Shown here piece after piece: positions 22,130 through 60,600 of a DNA stretch of 64,000 bases. The stretch is taken from assembly GCA_976551045.1 (NCBI GenBank), contig CDPCPM010000269.1, forward strand, positions 3,968,001 through 4,032,000, in the 5' to 3' direction. This DNA is from Glaucostegus cemiculus. Lineage: Eukaryota. How positions within the stretch are numbered: position 1 is the stretch's first letter; each line of letters begins with the position of its first letter. A model generated the notes under the pieces. The model was given only the letters and a program-made list of their open reading frames with translations. It was not told where the DNA came from and searched no databases. A program made the translations under genes and the position numbers.

Positions 22130-23500
22130 TACTCAGTTAGAGCACAGAAAAGAGCATGTAGAGAAAACAAAGATTGTTATTAGATCTTGCTGAAATCTAA
22201 TGGAAAACAGGATTGTAGACAATTGTGAAAGTAATGAGAAAAGCTTTCTCGTTTATGTGAAGAGTGGGGGAGTAGTCACGGTGTTGGGCTGTTGAAGGAT
22301 GTTAAAGGATAGATTACAAATGACCTACTGGTATGGCTGACGTATTCAATGAGGATTGCCACAGCCTCAGTCTTCAAGATGATACTTGACTGTGAGACTT
22401 GAATGATCTTATTGCTGGAACCACCACTGATGTTGTATTGTTTTGGGAATAATTAAAAACTTGAAAATAGATGGGTGATGGAAGGTGGTGGTGTTTGGTC
22501 TTTGAGGAGTCTCTATATACTTAAAACTTCACTTTGGGAGAGCTCCATTAGACTGGAAGGAGGGTTGATTAGTTTGATGTCAGGAATGGGAAGGGTACTT
22601 GAGGAAATCATTAGAAATGCAATAAATGATAGCTCAGACAAAATGGGACATGTTATGGACACCTGCTATGGGTTTACAATGAAATCATGTCTTCTCAATC
22701 CAATTGCATTTTGGAATCGGTTCTGAAGATGTGACAAGATACTGCACAAGAGGGCCTGCTACTGGAATGAACCTTCAAGTATTAGTAGCAATACATTGGG
22801 CTGGATTAAAAAAAAATCCTGGGGTAATATAAAGGGAAACTTTCCACAGAGTGAGTGTTTATGGAATATACCATATGAAAGTATAACAGATGGAGATGGT
22901 AGTTTTCAAAATGGAATTGAATAAATATCTGAAGATTTAAAAAAACATTCAGGACTACAGGTAATAGGACTGATGGGATTGAACTTGAAGGATACAGATG
23001 GAAAGTAGTTATGGATGGATTTCAATCTGCTTGGAGATCAGTCAACAGTGGTGTGCCATTGGGTTCCAGGTCAGGAACACTGTCCTTTGGTTTTATTTAT
23101 ACCCTGCACATAGGCATTGAGGGCACAATCTTTAAATTTAAAGACAATGCAAAACTCAGTTCAAGTGAGAGTCCTGTGAATAATTTCCAATTGTTTCAGG
23201 TCTTGGAGGTTTGGACTTCTGATTGGTAAATAACTCCTAATTTGGAAAGGTGCAGCACTATATATCTGGGCAGGGTGAATGCTCAACATTGCAGTGTTGT
23301 TTAGGGTAAGCACTAAAAAATAATGGAGAATGAGACTGATCTGAGTGTCTTAATGCACATCTTTCCAAAAGTTTAAGAGCAATGTCATGAATTTATGAAT
23401 GAGGTGCATTCATAAATTCATGACAGTAGATTATAAGAAGTTTTGAGTGCAAAATCTTGATCTTGCCTTACATGGAATTCTGTGCACAAGTTTGATCATT
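22130..23500 (+). mobile_element. Old CR1 ORF2 RT relic with a nested CR1 tail (~22810-22990)
   Basis: ORF remnants YGFTMKSCLLNPIAF, SAWRSVNSGVPLGS and FKFKDNAKL match CR1 RT (HGF..KSCLTNL, VxSGVPQGS, KFADDTKL). Confidence 0.75.
23383..23425. repeat. Perfect 19-bp inverted repeat with 5-nt loop
   Basis: tgtcatgaatttatgaatg-aggtg-cattcataaattcatgaca. Confidence 0.95.
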
Positions 23501-23597: not shown

Positions 23598-24050
23598 TGT
23601 AGAACTGTTGCAACATACAAGGAGTCTGTTTGGCCCAACAAAGTCTGTGTTGGCTTCAAGTGGAGCAATCCAATCAGTCCCAGTTTCATGTGCTCTACCC
23701 ATAGTCCTGAATTTTTTTTAATGTTCAGATATTTATTCCATTTCATTCTGAAAATGACTAATCTCCATCTGTTATACTTTCATTCAGTATATTCCACATC
23801 ATAAACTCTCACTCTGTTGAAAGTTTCCCTTAATATTACCCTTGGATATTTTTTCAATCACCTAAATCTAGTCCTCGACACCTCTGCTGATGGGAATAGC
23901 TCCTCTTTATTTACTCTAACTAAACTCTTCAAGATTTAACACACTTCCATCAAATATCCTATCAGCCTGCTGTGGTTGCAAGGAGGTCAGTTCCAGCTTC
24001 TCTATTCCATTCTTCACCTACTGGACCATTTTCATTCAACCTGTATTATT
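23598..24050 (-). mobile_element. Old CR1 3' fragment
   Basis: Antisense CR1 tail (ctgtttggcccaacaaagtctgtg..ttccacatcataaactctcactctg..cctctgctgatgggaatagc). Confidence 0.65.
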
Positions 24051-29129: not shown

Positions 29130-29500
29130 TTTAAGTGTGGCCAAATTTTTAGTACTTACTTCTTAATGATCTATTTCTCCTTCATTTTCTTTGCTTCAAT
29201 AACTGATATTGGCAGCACCTTCTTATTGTTAATGGTGGATGCAAAGTCTTCATTTAGTGTCTTACCCAAGCCCTCTGCCTTCATCATTTCATCATTAATA
29301 AGTCACATCAATTCCCTTGCTTCATTTTTTTCCCGGTTATTTTCATTTTTCAATTCTTCTCTGCACTTTCTGTATTCAGCTTGTTTCTATAATAAACTGA
29401 ATTATGAGTTTGCCATGTGTTATAAGCCTCTATACTTCTCTTTTATTTCAACCTTTAAACCTTTGGTCATCCACAGAACTATATCTTTTTCCCCAAGTAT
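29130..29500 (-). mobile_element. Old CR1 ORF2 internal fragment
   Basis: Antisense pre-RT region (aatggtggatgcaaagtcttcatttagt reads as minus-strand LNEDFASTI-like). It explains the F/S-rich 170-aa plus ORF. Confidence 0.5.
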
Positions 29501-29777
29501 GACAGGTTGGGCAGTCCCGTTCAGAAACAAAACAAGTGGACAAATCAGAGCTCTTCTTCCAAAATTGGATAGGCTGCTGGAATTAGAGGTGCAAAACAAA
29601 ATATTGGAAGACCACTGGGAATGACCAAAAGGAAGGCAGATGTATTACTACACAAGAGCTCCCAAGCAGGAGCAGTGCACCAAAACCACCAAGGGGACTC
29701 TTTCACTGAAGAATATGCACATTCAGAAGGATGTTCCACTTGTCCTGGGAAATGAGAACACCACATCTTGATTTCAG

Positions 29778-30963: not shown

Positions 30964-32051
30964 CTTTAGTGCTTGATGAGAGAAGTTATAGTTGGAGGCT
31001 GTTTCAGAGGAAGAAACTGCAAGGATCCCTGCAAGCTCTGTAAACTTTAACAAGTACAAGTGTTTTTGTTGATAGTTAAAGTACCAACTAATTCCAGTAT
31101 GCAAAAGAGTGAACAGGAGAGATACTGAGACAGTAATATCAGTGCAGAAACCAGATTAGCCTTCAGGCGAAAATTCAGTTTGAATTATATTCAAAATCTG
31201 TTTCTTATCAGTGTTTATGCGATTTTTGTGTAATTGGGGAGGAATATGGCTCACATCGGCCAGATGACAAGTGTACTGGATGATACGACTTTGATACATT
31301 ATTGTACCAGCCTGTTCTTCAAGTTTAGTGACATGAAAAGCAAATTTATTTCTGAAGTATATTTGGGAATAGAAGAAGATTAGAAATCTAGTGAGGTTTG
31401 CTTTTTATATATTCAACCACAGTGGTTGAGTAAGCCATTTTTACAGATGGTGGCTTTTGAATAAAAGCACCAAATCAATTGTTATTTTCTGTAACACAGC
31501 AGGAAGACATTTGTAGAAGTTATACTTTGGAGCTTTTTATTTGAGGTGGCAACATCAAAGATTGAGCTGGCAGTCACCTTGAGATGACATTAGCACGATT
31601 GCTTCTTGTCTTGTGCAGTATCTTTATAGATTGCACAGTCTCCCTTTTTATCAGAAACAGATTAGAGAGGTCAGCAGTTTGGTAAGAGAAATCTTGAGGT
31701 GCATGCAGAAGATAGCAAAGAGAAAGACTGATTACTTATTGCAGTATCTTTATTCTTTGAACTGCAATCTCTGCACAAAATATCATCTGCCTCAACACTT
31801 TGACCAAAGGATTGTGGATGTGGAAGATTTTATTCACTATTAGGTGTTGATCAAAGAGTAGCTGAAAGATCCAAACATTTTAACATAACATGACACACAA
31901 AAGAAAAATGAAGTTCCTTGCATGGTTGGAAGAATGAAATAAGTGAACTATATGGAGAAGTGTGCATATTTCTCTGTACTGTGGATGACTACACAGGAGC
32001 ATTGCCATTTTGCTGTGAGCAGGAGGCTTAAACACTAATATGCAGCTGATA

Positions 32052-32054
<3 letters not shown>

Positions 32055-32128
<74 letters not shown>
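32055..32128. repeat. (CA)n microsatellite, about 37 units
   Basis: Directly visible perfect dinucleotide run. Confidence 0.98.
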
Positions 32129-32130
<2 letters not shown>

Positions 32131-32132
<2 letters not shown>

Positions 32133-32202
32133 CAAAATAATCGTGCATCAGGTTTATAACATACAAGTGTTCGTGTGACATTATCTTGATGAAAAGCCAC
32201 AC
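32131..32202 (+). repeat. Left copy of long-range inverted duplicate (perfect 30-bp core 32173-32202)
   Basis: gtgtgacattatcttgatgaaaagccacac is the exact reverse complement of 38166-38195. Confidence 0.9.
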
Positions 32203-32523
32203 CTTAAAATTATGCTGACAGCTGTTGGAATTTCTCAAAGTTTGTGTGAGATTGTTGTAATGTTAGCAGGATGGTGACACACTTTTCCCTCACCTCCTTG
32301 TAAAGCATCTAGTAAGTGAAGCACAGCAGAAGAACTCAAATTCATATGACAGCTCATTATCATTAATCCAAACATAACTTGAATAGGCAGACAGTGGCCT
32401 TATGTAATTCCATTCTCTGTATCTGTGCACAGAAACTTTCAATTTTTCAAAAAAGACTGAATGAAACCAAACGTTTCACCAAAGAAATGAGGATCTAGAA
32501 ATTCTTATGCATCTCCAAAGCCC

Positions 32524-32610
32524 CAGATGCTGCTCAACCTGCTGAATGACTCCAGCAAAATGTTTGTTGCTCCAAATTCCAGCAAATGCATTCTCTTATC
32601 TCTCTCTTCC
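32524..32610 (+). mobile_element. Single arm of the Penelope-derived mini-element
   Basis: cagatgctgctcaacctgctgaatgactccagca..tgttgctccaaattccagca. Confidence 0.7.
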
Positions 32611-33449
32611 ATAAAGCTGAAGTCATTTTGCAAATAGAAGAGGCCTTGGATACTGTATGCACACAAAGCCTTTGCCTTTACAAACTCTATAATTCCAACT
32701 CTGGTGGGCAATCAATTGTAAGGGTTAATGGGAAGAACTGGGACACCATTAGATGTCTTTACAAATTCCTGTCACCTCTGTCTCTAATTACAACCTTTTC
32801 TACAGTGGGGCCAATATTAATTTAATAACGTTTGGATTTTACGCATCAAGTCATGGATCATTTGAACGATGGGATTTTTATGGTAACCGATTTGGAAATT
32901 CCATTACTTACGTGTTCATGTTTTCTGCTATCTGAGGCATTCTATACAGTCGATAGCCTTCATGTTACCAAAATATTGCTGGAAACATTTTGGTTCAGCA
33001 TCCTGCTAGATCTCGAACATGAAGGATCCTGTAAAAATAGTTCTGCTTGGCAATTTATTTTGTGACTAAATATTGGTGAATTCAGAGGATTGTCCTTGAG
33101 ATTTAGTGCTTTTCCACTTTGCAGTCAGTGTTAGAATTGAATAATTTTAGGCCAGTTTTGCCTCTGGCCAGATCAAATGCAGCATAGCCATTTGAATCAA
33201 ACCTGGTATAAATCTGAACCCAGGTCCCTAAAGAGACAACATTATGTTTAAACAATAAAGCACTCAGTCCTTTCCTGGTGAAGTTTTGCAGAGTTTGATG
33301 TGACTCTGCAGGACAATTTAATTTTCATTGCTATAGATAACCCATGATTCTATTGGACATATGATATATTCCTGGTGAAAGTACATTATGGAGATTATGA
33401 AGTCATTGCAATAATATAATAACTTCTCCAAGGCAGGTAACTGAGGATG

Positions 33450-34065
33450 TCAAGTGGCAACATGGCAAGGATGGGGAGCATGACTTAAAGGAATGCAAGA
33501 CCAGAGAGACGTGAAGGGTGTTTGAAAGTGTGGCAAGTTAACAAAATAGTTAGTAGAGCACATGGCATGTTGGGCTTTGGAAATACAATGCAAAACACAA
33601 GAAGCTACACTAAAAAAAATGTAATTCATTCAATTCCAGTTGGACTCAAACTGTTGTGTCCTCTTCCGGGGAACACAGTTTGTAGAGGCTTTTTGATTAG
33701 TGCGCAAGAGTTTTACTAAAATGGTTCCAAGGTTAAGGAATGCTCTGGTGTGGGGAGATTAGACATGGTCTTGTTGCTCTCCTTTGAGCAGGGAAGGTTT
33801 AAAGGACATTTGATGGAGGTGCTTAAAATCAGTTAAATGGAGCATATAAAGAGAAACGGCTTCCAAGACCTGAAGCATCAAGGAGATGTGGGGAAACACT
33901 CACTGATACGGTGACTGGGTAGAATTTGGACAGAATAATGGATTCAGGCTTTATTGTAGAGAGAATCAAACAGATAAGTGAAGGAAATAAAACTCCAGGG
34001 ATTTTCAGGGAAGACTCAAAGGGCCAAGTGGCCTCCTTACGTGCTGCCTTACTATAAATCTATGG
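33450..34065 (+). mobile_element. Old CR1 3' fragment
   Basis: QVNKIVSRAHGMLGF motif and gggccaagtggcctcctt tail. Confidence 0.7.
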
Positions 34066-34211
34066 CTGAATAGATAGGTATGGAAAAGGAACTTGAAGGT
34101 GGGCTGAGACAGATTTGGGAAGAGGACAGCAGAGAATGAGTTGGGCTGCAGAAAGGTACTGCAAGGGAGAGAGGGATGCAAGAAGGTCAGAATCTAGAAG
34201 CTATCGGCTGA

Positions 34212-34410
34212 AGACACACGAGACGGCACCTGCTGTAGTCTGGAACAAATAGTAAGCTGCTGGAGGAACTCAGTGGGTTGAGCAGCATCTGTGGGTGGGG
34301 AGCGGAGGGGTGGAATGAATTGTCACTGTTTCAGGTCAAGACCCCACATCAGGACTTTATCCCGACAGATGCTGCTTGGCCTGTTGAGAACCTCTCGCAG
34401 TTTGGTTTTC
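34212..34410. mobile_element. Penelope-derived palindromic mini-element, partly deleted
   Basis: gctggaggaactcagtgggttgagcagcatctgtgg .. cagatgctgcttggcctgttgagaacctc. Minus strand agtcCTGATGT..gggtcttgacctGAAAC. Confidence 0.7.
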
Positions 34411-34649
34411 GCAGTAGGCTAGAGCGAACCCAAAGTCGGAGTTTGTGATAAAAAAGACAGATCTTAGAGCTCTGGGCAAATCTTGTGCTGTGACCTTATT
34501 GTTGACAATACCTTCCAGTGGGTGTGTGCACAAAAATAAACTTGGCTTCTCACACAGATCTGCACGCAGTTTAAACATCTGAATCACGAGTGGTTGGTAT
34601 TTGAATACGTTGAATGGTGCTGTTGTGATCTTCTAAGGTAACAGCACAG

Positions 34650-35000
34650 AAAAGGCCCTCACTGTGCATCATGCCTGTGGTGGAATATGATTTTGAATTT
34701 AATTTGTTGGGCAACGGGGAGCTGGTAGAAGTCAATGAAACTATGATGATAAGTGAGTGGGCTGAGGAAGAGGATTTGGATGCTGAAGGATTTGATTTAA
34801 TTAGCATTTATACCGCATGTGGCTCATGAGGGAAATAATAATCAAAGAAACTGCTTGAGTTGATAAGGGCTTGAATAAGATTTACAGCTCGAGTGAAATG
34901 ATCCAAATGTGAAAGCAAGCAATGGTGCAGAAGCAGAAGAAGGCAATTAAAGATTGGGTTGCTCCAAGTTCTGTGTAGGTTTGAACAGGAAGAGGCTAAA
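34650..35000 (-). mobile_element. Very old L2-like LINE fragment
   Basis: Purine-rich antisense motifs (tgataagggcttgaataagatttacagc). Confidence 0.35.
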
Positions 35001-36084
35001 GCTGTATTTTCTGTCCCTATTTAATTAATTTTATTTTGATCAAAAAATCTACTCGAATTTAAGTGATGGCTGCCCTCTCCCACTACGTTCTGTGGAAACT
35101 GGGCCAGGCTGATAGAACTGGAAGTTCATCTCGGTTAATATCTTCATTCAAGGTACAAAATGAATTGTACAGTGCTGTAATGAACGGGCAGAACCAAAGT
35201 CGTGTGCAGATTTATTTGCCTGTTGTTGAGTAAATGCTGCCTAGTTTTCCCATAATCGGACTATAGAAGAATTGTATTTCTCCTGCATGCTTTAGGTCTG
35301 GGAAAAACATTCAAACCCCTGCAAGTGAAGTGGACCTCACACCATCCAATTCCAACACCGTAAATTATGCCAAATCTGAGTAGTTCCAGCATTCTTTGTT
35401 TTTACTTACTACAACTTGAAAATCCTGAAAGAGACTTTCAGAGGTTTCTTTCAGAAGGCTGTTGTCTCTGACAAAGATCTCTCTGAAATAGCTATTTTGG
35501 GCTTTTGTGAACTGATTTTTCTTGCAACTTTTCCAATATTTTGTGCATGTAGTGTCTATGGTTTGAGGATACCTGAGTGTATTGGACGTTACGATTTTGA
35601 TGCATTATTATACAAGCCTGCTCTTCAAGTTTAATAACTACAATAAGGGATATTCTGTTGGTAGCTCTACCTTTGCTTTTGCCTTTGTAAGCAGCAAGAC
35701 TAATGACCCAAATGAATATGTAGTGCTTGACAAATAAAGGGAAGGATGTGAATAATGGAAGCCCTCACTGCTGCATCAAGCCTTGGAAGACATCTCAAAA
35801 ATTCACCATTCTGTAAGAAAAAGACTTAACAACAGTGAAAATAAATCCAACACCTATTTGGGGAAGAAAATAATTTTGGGAGCATCCTTACAGAAGCATT
35901 TCCTACTTGTATCTTAGTGCTCAGACTTCCCATGGTACACTGTGGTTTACCCCATGGGATTAGGTAGGGTGGTGGACGGTGGTGGGTTATTCCTCTGCTG
36001 GAGTCATGGCCACTTCCAGGAGTTACTGGGAAGTAAGTAAGAGCTCAAGGTGTTTAAGTTCTTTATTCTACCATCCTTACTCAG

Positions 36085-36200
36085 CAGTGATGAAGCCTGT
36101 CACAGTGTTTGCAGTCCTGGTTGATATCAGCTAAGCCCGGACATTATGTGGAACAAGGTGATCTCAGTCTGGTTTGTATAGCTTAGTACGATGTCACTGG
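36085..36200 (-). mobile_element. LF-SINE-like head relic
   Basis: cctggttgatatcagctaa..ctggtttgtatagcttagtac resembles an antisense LF-SINE 5' part (from recall). Confidence 0.4.
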
Positions 36201-36704
36201 GAAAAGTTACCCAGTGTAGCCACTAGCAATGGGGAATATGACAACCATCTCTTCTGAAAGATACCTACAAAGATGGTTTGCCATGATGCTGCACTGATTA
36301 ATCAGAGTTCTTGAACAATTTTCAACTCTTCCTGCAGTGCACAATAATGGAAACTTGTCAAGCCATCTCCATGCAGAATGATTCACGTGTGAAATTACAA
36401 AACCAATTTGACAGGAAGCAGGCAATTGCCTTCAATGAGCTCAGATTTCCTTTTGTTCTTATCAGACGAATGCCATTCCCAAAATGCTTTTTCTCGTTGC
36501 ATTATAATCAACCCTCTCTGATGTTACCATAGCATCGTGCTGCGTTCCAGCAGCTATACTAACTACTGAATTGGAGAATTCTCTCGTCTCAAGATTGCTG
36601 CTTAAGATTGCATCTCTGTGAAATGCTGGGGTGCAGAATGTGTAGAAAATGTGCCAGCATACCTCATCAATTGAGCCAATGTTACATCATCTTTCTGTGG
36701 CTGG

Positions 36705-36905
36705 AGACATAAGAAGCAGAAGCAGGTATTGGACACAAACCTCCTAGAGCCTGCTGTGCCATTTGACAAGGTCATAGCTGAGCTGCTGCGTAATTCCACC
36801 TCATGCTGATTCCCATATCTCTTGATTCCCCTTGGCTGAATGTCTTGATTCATGATGACTAAACATCTGCAGCCTTCCTTGGTAGGATATACTATTCACT
36901 CATGA
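36705..36905 (-). mobile_element. CR1 3' end fragment
   Basis: acataagaagcagaagcaggtattgg..cctcctagagcctgctgtgccatt..catagctga is an antisense CR1 tail. Confidence 0.75.
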
Positions 36906-37006
36906 ACAAAAAGCAGTGTGTGTTTTGGAATCATGCTAATTAAAATGTGCAAAAAAAATAGTATCTGAACAGCGTTTGTTCCATTTGCATTATTTGTTTT
37001 AAACTA

Positions 37007-37302
37007 GGGGACGGCATGGTAGCATAGTGGTTAGCGCAATGCTTTACAGCGCCAGCAACCTGGGTTCAAATCCGGCTACTGTCCGTAAGGATTTTGTACG
37101 TTCTCCCTGTGTCTGTGTGGGTTTCCTCCGGGTGCTCCAGTTTCCTCCCACTTTCCAAAGACTTACAGGTTAGGAAGTTATGGGCATGCTATGTTGGCGC
37201 TGGAAGCGTGGCGACACTTATGGGCTGCCCCCCAGAATCAATATTGCAAAAGATGCATTTTGCTGTGTGTTTCGATGTACATGTGACTAATAAAGATCTT
37301 AT
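37007..37302 (+). mobile_element. Full-length V-SINE with Rex1-like tail
   Basis: ggggacggcatggtagcatagtggttagcgcaatg..gggttcaaatcc..gatgtacatgtgactaataaagatctta. Confidence 0.92.
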
Positions 37303-38165
37303 GTGAAATCTATGTTCAAACAGTTGATCACATCACCCAATACTGACAATCCAATGTTCCTAATGAGTTGTCCAATGCTTGAAAGTAAATTTTCCAGTTG
37401 CACTCTGCTGCTGTGGAATTCGAACAAGTTTCAAGTTGCTTGTGTTTTTGGATAAAGCAAGTTCTAGTGTTGCTTTAAAAAAATGTCTGCCTCATAGAAG
37501 GATGCTCGTGCTAGTCATTCCAGTTTACTACAATCCACCGAGCTGCTTCCATTCTGATTCTTACTCATTGTGACATAGCTCTTCACCGCTATGTCACAAT
37601 GAAGAAGAGAAATTGTACCAAGCCAACCAATACTAAATTATTAAAATGAAGGCTTGTATTTCCATCTTCCTGATGGGTGTCATCCTCAGGCACTCTTTTT
37701 CCTGTCACTATCACCTTGTTTAACGGTATTTCTAACTACTCTGCAAATGCAAAGAAAAATGAAAATAAGAATTATAGGTATGAAATAGGACTATACACAA
37801 AAGATATATCATGCAGCTGTTATGATGCCATATTTATATAGCAGTTGGGTTGGATGGAAGAAAAATCTATCACTGTGCACTTGGAAGTAAGAGTGGTCCC
37901 CAGTTATACTATAGATGTTTAAATAGTATTGAAGAGATGTTTACTATTGTGCAGTCTTGATTCCTACCTTAACCCCAGAAGTTTATTTTAATTTGAAGTC
38001 TAGTCACGAGGACTTGTCTGTACAGTGACATCCAATATATCACAAAAGCCATGTAAGTAATCTTATATGCTGTATGTCATGGTCACAGGAATTGTACTTC
38101 TCCAGAATTTAATGGTTTTATGCAATGTGGTAGCTATTTTGTCATTGTTGTTGTTCTGTGTGGGT

Positions 38166-38348
38166 GTGTGGCTTTTCATCAAGATAATGTCACACTAACA
38201 CTCATATTATTGGTATTGGTTTATTATTGTCATTTCTACCAAGGTACAGTGAAAAACTTGTCTTGCATACCGATCGTGCTGGTCAATTCATTGCACGGTG
38301 CAGTTACATTGAGTTAGTATTATTAAAGCTGATGCAAGATTATCTTGT
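38166..38348 (-). repeat. Right copy of long-range inverted duplicate, interrupted by a Rex1 tail
   Basis: Core 38166-38195. Homology resumes after the insertion (taaagctgatgcaagattatcttgt versus the left copy's taaacctgatgcacgattattttgt). Confidence 0.85.
38208..38320 (-). mobile_element. Rex1/Babar 3' tail fragment with probable tattatt target duplication
   Basis: tattggtattggtttattattgtc..ggtacagtgaaaaact matches the Rex1 tails at 50737 and 45900-46000. Confidence 0.85.
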
Positions 38349-39739
38349 AGTATGGGTTAAACAGGTGTGTGTATATACAGGTGTGTGTACCATAACAAAA
38401 CTCCATTTGAAGCAAAACCACCATCACTTTTTTAAACAATGGGTCCCCAGGCCTAACATGCTGAGAACAATTTCTAAAGTTGCAGAAGTGTAAATTAGCG
38501 TTTTAACATTGTTGCTTCACTTTGCTTTCTTTCTCTAAATCAGATTCTCATTGTGCATCAAAAAATTCCCTGTAGCAGTGATGTTCGAGTAAGGATTACA
38601 AATGAATACTGAATCAATCTGAACAGGCTAGATCTGTTATTCACATTTTTGTGTTTCACTTGAGCTGGCTGTGCTGTTGAATGTGCTGCAAGATAGATTA
38701 TACTTTGTTCCAGGTATTGCCTGGTTTTGGAACAATTGTAAAACACAGACTTCCTCCTGATATCTGGCTGTAAAGCAGTTTAGACATTGCTGTCAGGAGA
38801 ATTCCACTGTCAAGGCCTGTCATTTGGCAAGGAATGGAAGAGTAAAAAGTTAAATCAGTGAAAGACTTTACTCTTAATAATCTTGGTTGTATGTTACCCG
38901 GAGTATTGGGATTTGCACCTCTTTAGTATAAGTGTACCACAAACAAAATAAATTTGTGGATTCATGCAGGCATTTGTCTCGAGAATAACTGCTCAAAATA
39001 ATGTGGCAGGGCTCACTTAATTGGGGGTCACATTGAGATAATTGATATAATCTGCTTTGGCTTGATCATGATACCACAGCATGAGGGTTCTGTTCCATCC
39101 CACACTCTGGCATCCCTCACTCCGATGGTCACACACTAATTCATAAGTACTAGATGGAGAAACACAGCAAACTGAACTACCCAAAATCCACATCATTAAG
39201 AACTTAATTTGTTCTTGAGTGACCTTCATTGATTTATGATTCAGAAGTCTGCAGGCTTCCACTTGCACCAGGAAATCAGAAACAAATTCATTAATCTTAA
39301 TCAACTGTGTGTCTTTAAAAGAAAAATATATGTGAGGGAATCTCCACACAGTTTAGCTGTGTGCTCTAAATGTCAGAAATGTTTACTGCTGTTTGCAAGT
39401 TTGAGGCTATCAGCAGGAAGTTAATGCAAGTTAAATAGGCCTGTGCTGATGTTGATAGATGTACATGGACTGTGCAGCCCTATCGTTCTTCAAGATCCAC
39501 TGTTGCTATGTTTAGATTTGTTTATTCTTACTTCCAGTATCCTCTGGTCTATGGTTTTGAGAGGACAGATTTATTAACACACATTGGTGATACTGGGAGA
39601 GAAAACTTTGTGTGCCTCAGATCACTCAGCTTATGCCTGATGACAAGTAACTAAGAATGAAAAAGTATAGAAAGCTGGCAGCAGTGCAATGCACCAGTGC
39701 ACCATCCATCTCTTCTCACTGAAGCATTCAGTTATAACT

Positions 39740-45062: not shown

Positions 45063-46000
45063 ATTCTGCTCTAACTCCATCTACAAGTTTGCAGATGATA
45101 CCACCATTGTAGGCCATATCTCAAACAGCGATGAGTTGGAGTACAGGAAGGAGATAGAGAGCTTAGTGGAGTGGTGTCACAACAACAACCTTGCCCTCAG
45201 TGTCAACAAAACAAAAGAGCTGGTCATTGACTTCAGGAAAGGGGGCGGTGTACATGCACCTGTCTACATCAATGATGCTGAGGTCGAGAGGGTTGAGAGC
45301 TTCAAGTTCCTGGGAGTGAATATCACCAACAGCCTGTCCTGGTCAAATCACATCGAAGCCACGGTCAAGGAAGCTCACCAGAGCCTCTACTTCCTCTGGA
45401 GGCTAAAGAAATTTGGCTTGTCCCCTTTGACTCTCACCAACTTTTACCGACGCACCATGGAAAACATCCTATCTGGATGTATCACAGCTTGGGAAGGCAA
45501 CTGCTCTGCCCAGGACTGCAAGAAACTGCAGAGAGTTGTGGACACAGCCCAGTGCATTACAAACACCAGCCTCCCCTCCTTGAACTCTATCTTTACCTCT
45601 TGCTGTCTTGGTGAAGCAGCCAGCATAATCAAAGACCCCATCCACCGGAGACATTCTCTCTTCTCTCCTCTTCGGGTAAAAGATACAGGAGCCTAAAGGC
45701 ACGTACCACCAGACTTAAGGACAGCTTCTACCCCACTGTGGTAAGACTATTGAATGGTTCCCTTAAACAATGAGATGGACTATGACTTCACGATCTACCT
45801 TGTTGTGACCTTGCACCTTATTGCACTGTACCTTCTCTGTAGCTGTGACACTTTACTCTGTACTGTTATTGTTTTTACCTGTACTACATCAATGCACTCC
45901 GTACTGACTCAATGTAACTGCACTGTGTAATGAATTGACCTGTATGATCGGTTTGTAAGACAAGCCTTTCACTGTACAAGTGGCAATAATATACCAATAC
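45063..46000 (+). mobile_element. 5'-truncated Rex1/Babar LINE (RT C-half, C-terminal domain and 3' UTR)
   Basis: YKFADDTTIVG, then ORF 45136-45696 YRKEIESLVEWCHNNNLALSVNKTKELVIDFRK..VESFKFLGV..LYFLWRLKKFGL; ends with an aataccaatacc tail. Confidence 0.95.
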
Positions 46001-50736: not shown

Positions 50737-51392
50737 AATTGGTATTAGTTTATTATTCTCACTTGTACTGAGGTACAGTGAAAAAGCTCATCTTAAATGC
50801 CCAATTGTACAGGTCAATTTATTACACAGTGCAGTTGCTTTGAGTTAGTACGAGTGCATTGAGGTAGTACAGGTAAAAACAACAGTACAGAATAAAGTGT
50901 CACAGCTACAGAGAACGTGCCATGCAATAAGGTGCAACGTCACAAGTTAGATCATGAGGTCAGAGTCCATCTCATCGTATAACAGAACTGTTCAATAGTC
51001 TTATCACAGTTGGGTAGAAGCTGTCCTTAAGCCTGGTGTTATGTGCCCTCAGGCTCTTGTACCTTCTCTCTGATGGGGGAGGAGAGAAGAGAGAATGACT
51101 TAGGTGGGTGGGGTCTTTGATCATGCTGGCCGCTTTGCCAAGGCAGCGAGAGGTAAAGACGTAGTCCAAGGAGGAGAGGCTGGTGTTTGTAATGCACTAG
51201 GCTGTGTCCACAACTCTCTGCAGTTTCTTGCAGTCCTGGGCAGAGCAGTTGCCGCACCAAGCTGTAATGCATTCGGATAGGATGCTTTCGATGGTGCATT
51301 GATAATAGCTGGTGAATGTCAAAGGGGACATACCGAATTTCTTTACCCTCCTGAGGAAGTAGCAGTGCTGGTGAGCTTTCTTGGCCATGGCA
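50737..51392 (-). mobile_element. Rex1/Babar 3' fragment, young subfamily
   Basis: Minus ORFs AKKAHQHCYFLRRVKKFGMSPLT..KKLQRVVDTA and CLGKAASMIKDPTH..RLKDSFYPTVIRLLN. Confidence 0.95.
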
Positions 51393-57990: not shown

Positions 57991-58539
57991 CCTTTGACTT
58001 CATATCAAACCAACTGGAAAACAGTTTTGAAGTTAAATTATAAATTCAAGCCACTAGGTGATTTGGGCAGATTATTAAAAATTGAATCACAGCACATCAG
58101 AAGTAGTCTTATTATTATTATTACCTCAGTCAGGATAATAAATGGCATTGAGAGTAATGCTTATGAAAAAAAAATGTTCCAGTGAGTTGACAAGGAAAAG
58201 AATGGCCAATGAATGCAACATTTCTCTTTTAGAGAAATATACCTGTGAGGATAAGTTTTTTAAAAATTAAAAAAAAATCTGTATGCAAATTATCTGAAAG
58301 AAGTGGGAACGGTACCTATTGTTGCACTGAAACTTAAATGGGCTTGAAAGGATAATTTGAGATTATTTTTACATGAGCAATTTAGTCTCCAGACCCTTTC
58401 AAATACACTTGAGAGATGAATAGCATGGCAGCCACATACAGACACAGAAAGACCAGTGAACATTGTTGACAATCATTTTCTAAATCAAATAGAAAACATT
58501 TAACCTTGTGCTGAAGAACTGTACAGGCATGTGACTGCT

Positions 58540-59155
58540 GATTCTCTTCCATTTGGTCAACTCTTTTTCCTTTTGATTCAAAACTCCAAAGGATTCGATA
58601 TACAGGTCTCTGCTATTCTCAACTGTCTAACATCAGTCCTTCATTTTGTTACATCATCACTGCAGCTACTCAGGCATATTCTCACTTTAACCCATGATGG
58701 CCTCAAAACCCACCAGCAACATAACCTCTCTCATCCTGGTTACTTGAGCCGATTTAGAAATCAGGGGTACCTCTGCAAGACCAATGGATGCAGCCTTGAC
58801 TGGGCATCACAGCCAAATGACTTGGCCACTAACCATTGGTTTCAACTGGAGAACATAATGCCCTATTCAGTCCTCCTTGTATTTGACAAAGCTGGTCATT
58901 ATGCCCACTTTTTTCCTCTACTGCAAATCATCTTTGTAATCCCCCAGCCTGTTTCCCCCAACCTCACCATCAATAACAACTGTGAGGACCTTATAGACTT
59001 TGATTCGAAGACAACTGACCAAATGGTCTCAGCAGTATATCTATCCATTGGCTTTCATTTCTTAACCCACCATATAAAATCACTGACTCCCGATCACCCT
59101 GGCCTGAACTCACAACTTCTTGTTTTTTTTTCCCAATCCTACATGGTTTCAATGA
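58540..59155 (+). mobile_element. Old L2 ORF2 relic; its 3' end probably lies at 60650-60945
   Basis: QPVSPNLTINNNCEDLIDFDSKTTDQMVSA resembles the L2 pre-RT CEExxxFFxxKIxxI motif. Confidence 0.5.
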
Positions 59156-59159
59156 ACTT

Positions 59160-60600
59160 CAAGCAGCCAAATCTCTGTAATAGCCACAACATCATAATTC
59201 CACCTGCTGCTTCATGCTCTAAGTTCATCACCCTTATTTTTAATACTTCTCACATTCAAGTTAACACATTTTAATTGATCACATTTATGCCCTATCCACT
59301 GTCTATCCTTCCTCACAGTCTCTCTGCACGATGCATCTACCTTTACACTATCTGCTCCATCACCTGACCTTACACTCCAGTTCCCATCCCCCTGCCAACC
59401 TAGTTTAAACAAAGCTGCCTTCAAAGACATTGGTCCTTCTTGAGTTCAGTTGCAACCCATCCCTTCTCTACAGGTCATACCTTCTCCAGAAGAGATCCCA
59501 ATTATCTACAAATCTGAAACCCTGCCCTCTGCACCAACTCTTCCAGCCATGCATTTGTCTGCCATATCTTCCTATTCTTATCCTCACTGGGGCATGGCAC
59601 AGGCAGCAATCCAGAGATTACTATCCTTGAGGTTCTGCTTCTTAGCTTCCTTCCAAGCGCCCTATATTCCCTCTTCCAGACCTCATCCCTTATCCTATCT
59701 ATGTCATTGGTACCAATGTGTACCTTGACTTCTGGCTGCCTACCCTCCCCCTTAAAAATACAGTGGACTCGATCTGAGATGCCTCTGACCCTGGCACCTG
59801 GGAGACAACATACCATCCAGGAGTCTCGTTCTCATCCACAGAATCTCCTGTCAGTTCCCCTAACCAATGAATTCCCTATCACTCTCACCCTCCTCTTTCC
59901 CCCCCTTCCCCTCTGAGCCACAGAGCCAGACTCAAGTGCCAGAGACCTGGCTGTTGTGGCTTTCCTCCAGTAGGGTGTCCCCCACCAACGATATCCAAAG
60001 TGGTATACTTGTTATTGAGGGGAAAGGTCACAGGTGTACCCTGCACTGACTGCCTATTCCCTTCTTCTCTCCTGATGGCCACCCAGCTACCTGCAACATA
60101 GGTGCGACTGCCTCCCTGTGTCCTTTCTGTCAACGCCTCAGTCTCCCAAATGATCCAGAGTCCATTCAGCTCCAGTTCCCTAACATGGTCTGTAAGGAGC
60201 TGCAGCCCGATGCACTCCTCACAGGTGTAGTCATCAGGGACGCTGAAGATGTCCCTGACTTCCCACACCCTGCACATCACTGCCCTGACTGCCATTCTAC
60301 TGCTTTATCTGTGCAATAAGAAAGAGACCTTACTTGAACCTTACCTTTACCTCCACTCACCGAAGCTTCCTGAATCAATGCTGAATCAATGGTAACAACA
60401 AAATAAAAGAAAACCTCACCACCTCACTTAAGCCTGTTTTCCTAAAGAGGTGCTCTGACTCCCTACTCCTACTCTTGGACCACTAATTCTGCCTCTTCAT
60501 CCCAAAGCCTCTTGAGCCAAACCTCAGCTCTCTGCTCTAACACTGACCACTCCTACAATGGCCACTCTGCTCCACTTTACAATGCCTTATTTGCAAATTT
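59160..60600 (-). mobile_element. CR1 5' portion: 5' UTR, ORF1 (zinc finger plus SGNH esterase) and ORF2 endonuclease start
   Basis: CRVWEVRD..DDYTCEECIGLQLL; MVCCLPGARVR..HIGTNDI..IVISGLLPVP; LKCVNLNVRSIKNKGDELRA*..YDVVAITEIWL. Frameshifted. Confidence 0.92.

Follow-up and report, generated by a model that had tools for sequence, protein, structure and literature searches.

Repair-mediated duplications (RDs), as described by Pace, Sen, Batzer and Feschotte (Pace et al. 2009; PMC2671141), are two-copy sequences of 50-619 bp located on the same chromosome. They comprise local copies of conserved elements, also in opposite orientation, and have also been reported in zebrafish; an ad hoc proximal bin groups the pairs with donor and acceptor within 5 kb of each other (Pace et al. 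2009). A different type of paired sequence is formed by the PCCRs (PMC8052449), complementary regions located in the introns of a single protein-coding gene and conserved in both arms, with a median arm of 13 nt.

Here, we describe an inverted repeat in a stretch of 64,000 nucleotides of Glaucostegus cemiculus DNA, henceforth referred to as the window. Like the RDs of Pace et al. (2009), the pair is short, present in two copies, close by and inverted, copies conserved non-coding sequence and carries no poly(A) tail. Unlike their proximal RDs, its arms are 5.96 kb apart, just over the 5-kb bin; its acceptor also interrupts no recognised transposon, and a later LINE tail splits the copy. Since the spacing misses the 5-kb bin and no empty site was seen, the pair is assigned to the broad kind of repair-mediated local duplications and not to the strict proximal RD set. 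With PCCRs (PMC8052449), it shares near-perfect complementarity less than 10 kb apart, a predicted energy far below -15 kcal/mol and the location of one arm in conserved non-coding DNA. Unlike PCCRs, the arms have no host gene found around them, each is a 71-nt homologous duplicate, and the conservation observed here is that of the left arm. A distance within 10 kb and an energy of at most -15 kcal/mol are, moreover, true of any such duplicate. The inverted repeat is real and unique, and probably ordinary: in our view, both arms most likely go back to a single old repair event that duplicated, in inverted orientation, the edge of a conserved non-coding element, a reading to which we assign a probability of roughly 0.6.

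Direct sequence comparison verified that the left core, 30 nt at 32173-32202 (plus strand), is the exact reverse complement of the right core at 38166-38195 (minus strand), as claimed in the initial annotation. The BLAST alignment of the arms spans 37 nt with 1 mismatch (32166-32202 / 38166-38202), and a second collinear piece, identical at 22 of 25 positions, pairs 32132-32156 with 38324-38348 beyond a 113-nt insert. Homology thus reaches approximately 41 nt outward of the core, in two collinear pieces and past the LINE tail, in agreement with the roughly 40 bp noted earlier once a Rex1 tail is removed, and the whole inverted homology amounts to 71 nt. The left arm accordingly occupies 32132-32202 (plus strand). 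The outer flank of the right arm (minus strand) consists of 38196-38211, where 10 of 16 positions are identical to the left arm, and of 38325-38348, past the LINE tail. On the inner side, homology ends sharply, with no sequence shared between the inner flanks of the two arms in a BLAST comparison; this abrupt stop had been noticed before. The arms are separated by 5,963 nt, on the same chromosome and near but not tandem, and the spacer (32203-38165) is composed of unique DNA with SINE and LINE fragments, in which no Pfam or Rfam family was found. The left arm also adjoins a (CA)n run, as previously observed, namely a (CA)37.5 microsatellite at 32055-32129 (plus strand). The inner end of the right core adjoins GT-rich sequence, and the inner junction is of low complexity (GTGTG/CACAC). 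Beyond the outer junction, 38349-38392 (plus strand) holds possible filler and a short tandem CAGGTGTGTGTA duplication; this low-complexity segment may instead be decayed homology to an ancestral short CA tract. Inspection of both ends of the right arm revealed no poly(A/T) tail.

The outer flank is about 20% diverged between the arms, and its decay is uneven, as 6 of the 9 difference events fall within the 16 nt adjoining the LINE insertion. All three transition mismatches in the flank would be G-U pairs on the minus strand (P = 0.25, two-sided). The predicted duplex energy of the core is -51.2 kcal/mol on either strand; this value follows from the duplication itself and says nothing on function.

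The insert in the right arm (38212-38324, minus strand, including the second copy of a target-site duplication) is the 3' tail of a 5'-truncated, Rex1/Babar-like LINE. Its minus strand aligns with the 3' end of another LINE in the window, the open reading frame of which (45064-45693) matches RVT_1 and ALKBH8_N/DUF1891, a domain pair that we take to mark the element as Rex1/Babar. Across 1.06 Mb, 26 other copies share 76-92% identity with the tail. TATTATT, a candidate target-site duplication of 7 nt, is present at 38205-38211, within the right outer flank, and at 38318-38324, with borders that are uncertain because the LINE tail is AT-rich. Since homology between the arms resumes beyond the tail, the duplication is older than the LINE insertion, as had been proposed, and that insertion sets the minimum age of the event.

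A pattern search allowing up to 3 mismatches located the core 30-mer in two copies only in the 2.85-Gb genome, both in the window, while the backwards pattern, searched genome-wide as a control, gave 0 matches. DNA searches with either arm plus its flanks returned no further copy, and the flanks of both arms are single-copy; the DNA search skips very common words, whereas the pattern search does not. A scan of 24 nt of the core against metagenomes gave 0 matches, and a literature search found no description of this element. The earlier opinion that the pair is not an ordinary dispersed repeat is therefore upheld by the genome-wide copy number. Locally, exact inverted matches of at least 18 nt between low-copy sequences no more than 20 kb apart number 10 in 1.064 Mb, of which the core is the longest; together with the empty control, this points to more than a chance match. 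Two-copy local pairs within 50 kb number 34 in 1.064 Mb (19 inverted and 15 direct, the studied pair included), some of which may be low-copy transposon fragments.

To place the left arm in related organisms, contigs from sequencing runs of four other organisms (B, C, D and E; 4 of the 13 runs listed) were aligned to 31850-34850. One contig of relative B is colinear over 31850-32044 and 32144-34388, and one contig of relative C over 31850-32044 and 32144-32493, both containing the left arm without strand change from 32144 on; colinearity at this arm rests on B and C, as the contigs of D and E do not cover it. The single-copy block at 32144-32493, the outer edge of which coincides with the left arm, shows about half the local substitution rate. 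Relative C differs from the window at 12 of 350 nt there versus 184 of 2648 nt in the seven other main pieces (Poisson P = 0.005), with the proviso that 4 of these 12 differences are unplaced and that B and C, most of whose differences are common to both, do not count as independent. In relative B, no difference falls between 32015 and 32231 among the differences listed (40 of 326 rows), compared with 159 in 2245 nt overall; as no listed difference is specific to C or lies closer than about 30 nt to the end of a piece, the safe span for B is 32175-32231. The chance of this span being free of differences is 0.015 at a rate of 7.1%, and 0.13 for the 28 core bases alone. As the low divergence in B continues for 29 nt beyond the core, into DNA that has no pairing partner, it can be explained without pairing and is in keeping with duplication of the margin of a conserved element. 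The motif TGACA, a TALE-homeodomain site, occurs four times in 32144-32493 versus 1.1 expected, a small count chosen after the fact. Taken as it stands in these alignments, 32144-32493 is likely a conserved non-coding element.

Because the conserved block continues across the inner junction, we infer that the left arm is the donor and the right arm the acceptor. The event would have started with a break in GT-rich DNA near 38166, and strand invasion at a template in inverted orientation, 6 kb away, would have followed. Some 70 nt or somewhat more may then have been copied from the edge of the conserved element, pasted back to front and re-annealed. Synthesis-dependent strand annealing or a related template switch, helped by GTGTG/CACAC microhomology, is a plausible pathway. 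Later changes would have been the insertion of the LINE tail into this copy and the expansion of the CA tract next to the donor. The core may have stayed perfect while the right copy was neutral, because the donor is presumably constrained for a function of its own, probably as an enhancer; the clustering of differences at the LINE insertion site, and a scan that picks the best of many pairs, would contribute as well.

The initial annotation drew attention to the contrast between a perfect core and a decayed flank. Whether this contrast is unusual was evaluated with a longest-run test by shuffling, using as controls 21 of the local two-copy pairs counted above, each of at least 45 nt and located 150 nt to 20 kb apart. 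In the studied pair, 9 difference events fall within 71 columns, which include a perfect run of 30 nt (P = 0.027). Omission of the 9 nt adjoining the LINE insertion leaves 4 events in 62 columns (P = 0.25). Equally patchy profiles were obtained for 2 of the 21 controls (P = 0.006 and 0.021), both direct repeats that are unable to pair as RNA, one of them GC-rich and repetitive. None of the 13 inverted controls is as patchy (lowest P about 0.15), making the studied pair the patchiest of 14 inverted pairs. The core is thus indeed without mismatch and mildly unusual, but the contrast with its flank is weak after controls.

Several observations count against the repair reading. A flank divergence of about 20% implies an old event, and 30 untouched bases in an unconstrained right copy are then unlikely. 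In addition, no exact inverted low-copy match in 1.06 Mb exceeds the core in length, 0 of 13 inverted controls are as patchy, and all three flank transition mismatches are G-U-compatible on the minus strand (P = 0.25). The spacing just beyond the proximal bin of Pace et al. (2009) also counts against it, and no empty pre-insertion site was seen. A rather improbable elaboration is that selection took over an enhancer-edge duplicate which had arisen by chance during repair; the core would then have been held perfectly complementary to the donor over a long period, either by bridging 6 kb as RNA in a non-coding transcript or by serving as a second regulatory site. The stakes differ accordingly. 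If the repair reading is true, the locus matters little, as one more local repair duplication, in this case in a cartilaginous fish, a group absent from the species listed in the available text of Pace et al. (2009; PMC2671141). If the right core turned out to be conserved across elasmobranchs, it would represent a datable recruitment of a neutral duplicate as an intergenic RNA duplex or a second enhancer site near two neuronal genes.

Maintenance of the arms as a pre-mRNA duplex, the function favored by the initial annotation, calls for a host gene. All 589 open reading frames of at least 45 aa (stop-to-stop) in the window were scanned against Pfam, yielding retroelement domains and weak sub-cutoff matches only. 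Within 300 kb on either side, the best 300 of 948 exon-like candidates gave RVT_1 and two ZCCHC3-type domains, with one member each, and in a further 400 kb, the top 70 of the ranked candidates, read by eye, were retrotransposon frames. Exon-like frames at 29160-29620 were rejected, being read instead as a decayed LINE that we take to be of CR1 type; frames at 58504-59271 have a sub-cutoff Piezo match only, and an open reading frame at C269:5,415,540 matched neither Pfam nor PDB. Among the 23 matches listed for the TIR-domain, none is on contig C269. Farther away, two BRINP exons, one of them 94% identical to a shark protein named BRINP1, came from forty samples of 10 kb each, in which 10 of 526 candidates were scanned. 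Family searches showed that the BRINP domain ends at C269:3,295,952 (plus strand) and that the first astrotactin exon starts at C269:5,583,445 (plus strand). The arms, at about 4.00 Mb, consequently follow the end of BRINP1 at a distance of 0.7 Mb and precede the astrotactin gene by 1.6 Mb. The latter is provisionally called ASTN2 by linkage and not by a sequence test, because the human BRINP1 and ASTN2 genes occupy the same locus (PMC4818446). As far as searched, the arms are intergenic with respect to protein-coding genes, with about one fifth of the gap sampled outside 3.468-4.532 Mb and small exons able to escape. The human counterpart of the BRINP1-ASTN2 desert is linked to neurodevelopmental disorders.

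These Pfam and exon scans found no protein-coding host gene for the arms, which speaks against the pre-mRNA duplex in its original form. It is unlikely, though less so than the readings below, that selection maintains long-range RNA pairing of the arms, within a non-coding transcript lacking annotation or within an extremely long read-through crossing the desert. The core energy on either strand, the left core unchanged in B among the differences listed, the rank of the pair as the patchiest of 14 inverted pairs and the three G-U-compatible flank changes on the minus strand are consistent with such a duplex. However, besides the missing protein-coding host, Rfam at gathering score returned no family in the whole window, and its one match on 31500-39000 is at chance level (E = 0.11) and lies on a SINE. 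Moreover, conservation reaches into unpaired sequence, the core tolerated a LINE tail at a distance of 10-16 nt, and direct pairs can be equally patchy. The sequence TGATGA...CTGA in the left arm resembles what we take to be a C/D-box motif; this candidate was dropped, as it is without Rfam support and its boxes are less than 25 nt apart.

Alternatively, the repair origin may be the same and the right core may have been kept by selection as DNA, as a duplicated transcription-factor module that would give BRINP1 or the astrotactin gene a second enhancer site. The donor block is constrained and TGACA-rich, and Pace et al. describe predicted binding sites that were duplicated, with 100% identity in 7 of 21 (Pace et al. 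2009; PMC2671141). Yet the motif count that points this way (4 versus 1.1) is small and was picked post hoc, and we regard this alternative, too, as doubtful.

A staggered-break inversion is expected to leave a segment bracketed by an inverted duplicate, and the sharp inner end of the homology would suit a 6-kb inversion of this type. An inversion scar was among the alternatives of the initial annotation; a recent inversion is contradicted at the left arm by the B and C contigs, which cross it colinearly. An event older than the split from B and C is very improbable as well, given that the conserved block spans the would-be breakpoint at 32202/32203.

The step-like identity profile of the arms, with 0 difference events in 30 nt followed by 9 in 41 nt, could also have arisen if the inner 30-37 nt of an old duplicate had been re-homogenised later by one-off gene conversion or a template switch. 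This profile is, however, within the range of the control pairs, and homology this short is unfavourable for gene conversion at 6 kb; such a later episode thus has very little to recommend it. The earlier suggestion of terminal inverted repeats of an unrecognised DNA transposon, in favor of which inverted arms bracket 6 kb, is largely refuted by copy number and anatomy and scarcely credible: the locus is single genome-wide, the spacer lacks a transposase domain and starts with conserved unique DNA, and identity declines outward from a maximum at the inner end, contrary to the anatomy of such repeats.

Extra contig depth over the left arm in relative B (19.5 versus 14.7) was considered as a sign of the right arm mapping there; this explanation was dropped, because a heterozygous 61-nt bubble fits equally well and explains a similar excess in relative C. 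Next to the same arm, the CA-run region comprises 99 nt in the window versus about 33-34 nt in relatives B and C, and the run therefore appears to be a recent expansion.

The spacer between the two arms of the inverted duplicate contains a perfect hairpin with a 15-bp stem and an 8-nt loop (window positions 37565-37602), and TGTGACAT is present in this hairpin as well as in the arms. Because about a dozen comparable perfect hairpins were found in a scan of the surrounding 1.06 Mb, the spacer hairpin is not considered exceptional.

Other duplicated pairs lie within the window. Another unique inverted pair occupies 22804-22963 and 23696-23859; its arms, about 165 nt long and 83% identical, are separated by 733 nt, and the stretch that they enclose holds a perfect 19-bp hairpin at 23383-23425. 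A two-copy direct duplicate at 31270-31327 and 35576-35633 (58 nt, 86%, 4.2 kb apart) straddles the left arm of the ~6-kb inverted duplicate and is a further case of local duplication, its orientation matching that of the flank. Moreover, two Rex1-like LINE fragments (45358-45977 and 50801-51391) are found in inverted orientation 5 kb apart; the 54-nt exact run common to them is longer than the perfect 30-nt core of the arms, but lies within a high-copy repeat.

On the contig carrying the window (C269), the interval from BRINP1 to the astrotactin gene spans about 2.3 Mb (3,295,952-5,583,445), and no coding exons were found between the two genes in the parts searched. In human, TLR4 is located in the BRINP1-astrotactin interval; no TIR-domain match on C269 was present among the matches listed. 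A second BRINP-astrotactin pair, arranged head to head, is carried by contig C21.

In the middle of this gene-poor interval, a CpG- and GC-rich island (L063:1560-3150; C269 about 4,293,560-4,295,150) has a core of GGAC/GGGA repeats together with internal duplications, and may be either the promoter of a non-coding transcript or the remnant of a repeat. An LTR retrotransposon-like element at C269 4,392,753-4,399,475 (L073) has near-identical direct terminal repeats and is therefore a young insertion. Finally, a young direct two-copy duplicate at C269 4,308,604 and 4,313,114 (L062-L064 region; 195 nt, 96%, 4.3 kb apart) resembles a textbook proximal repair duplication.
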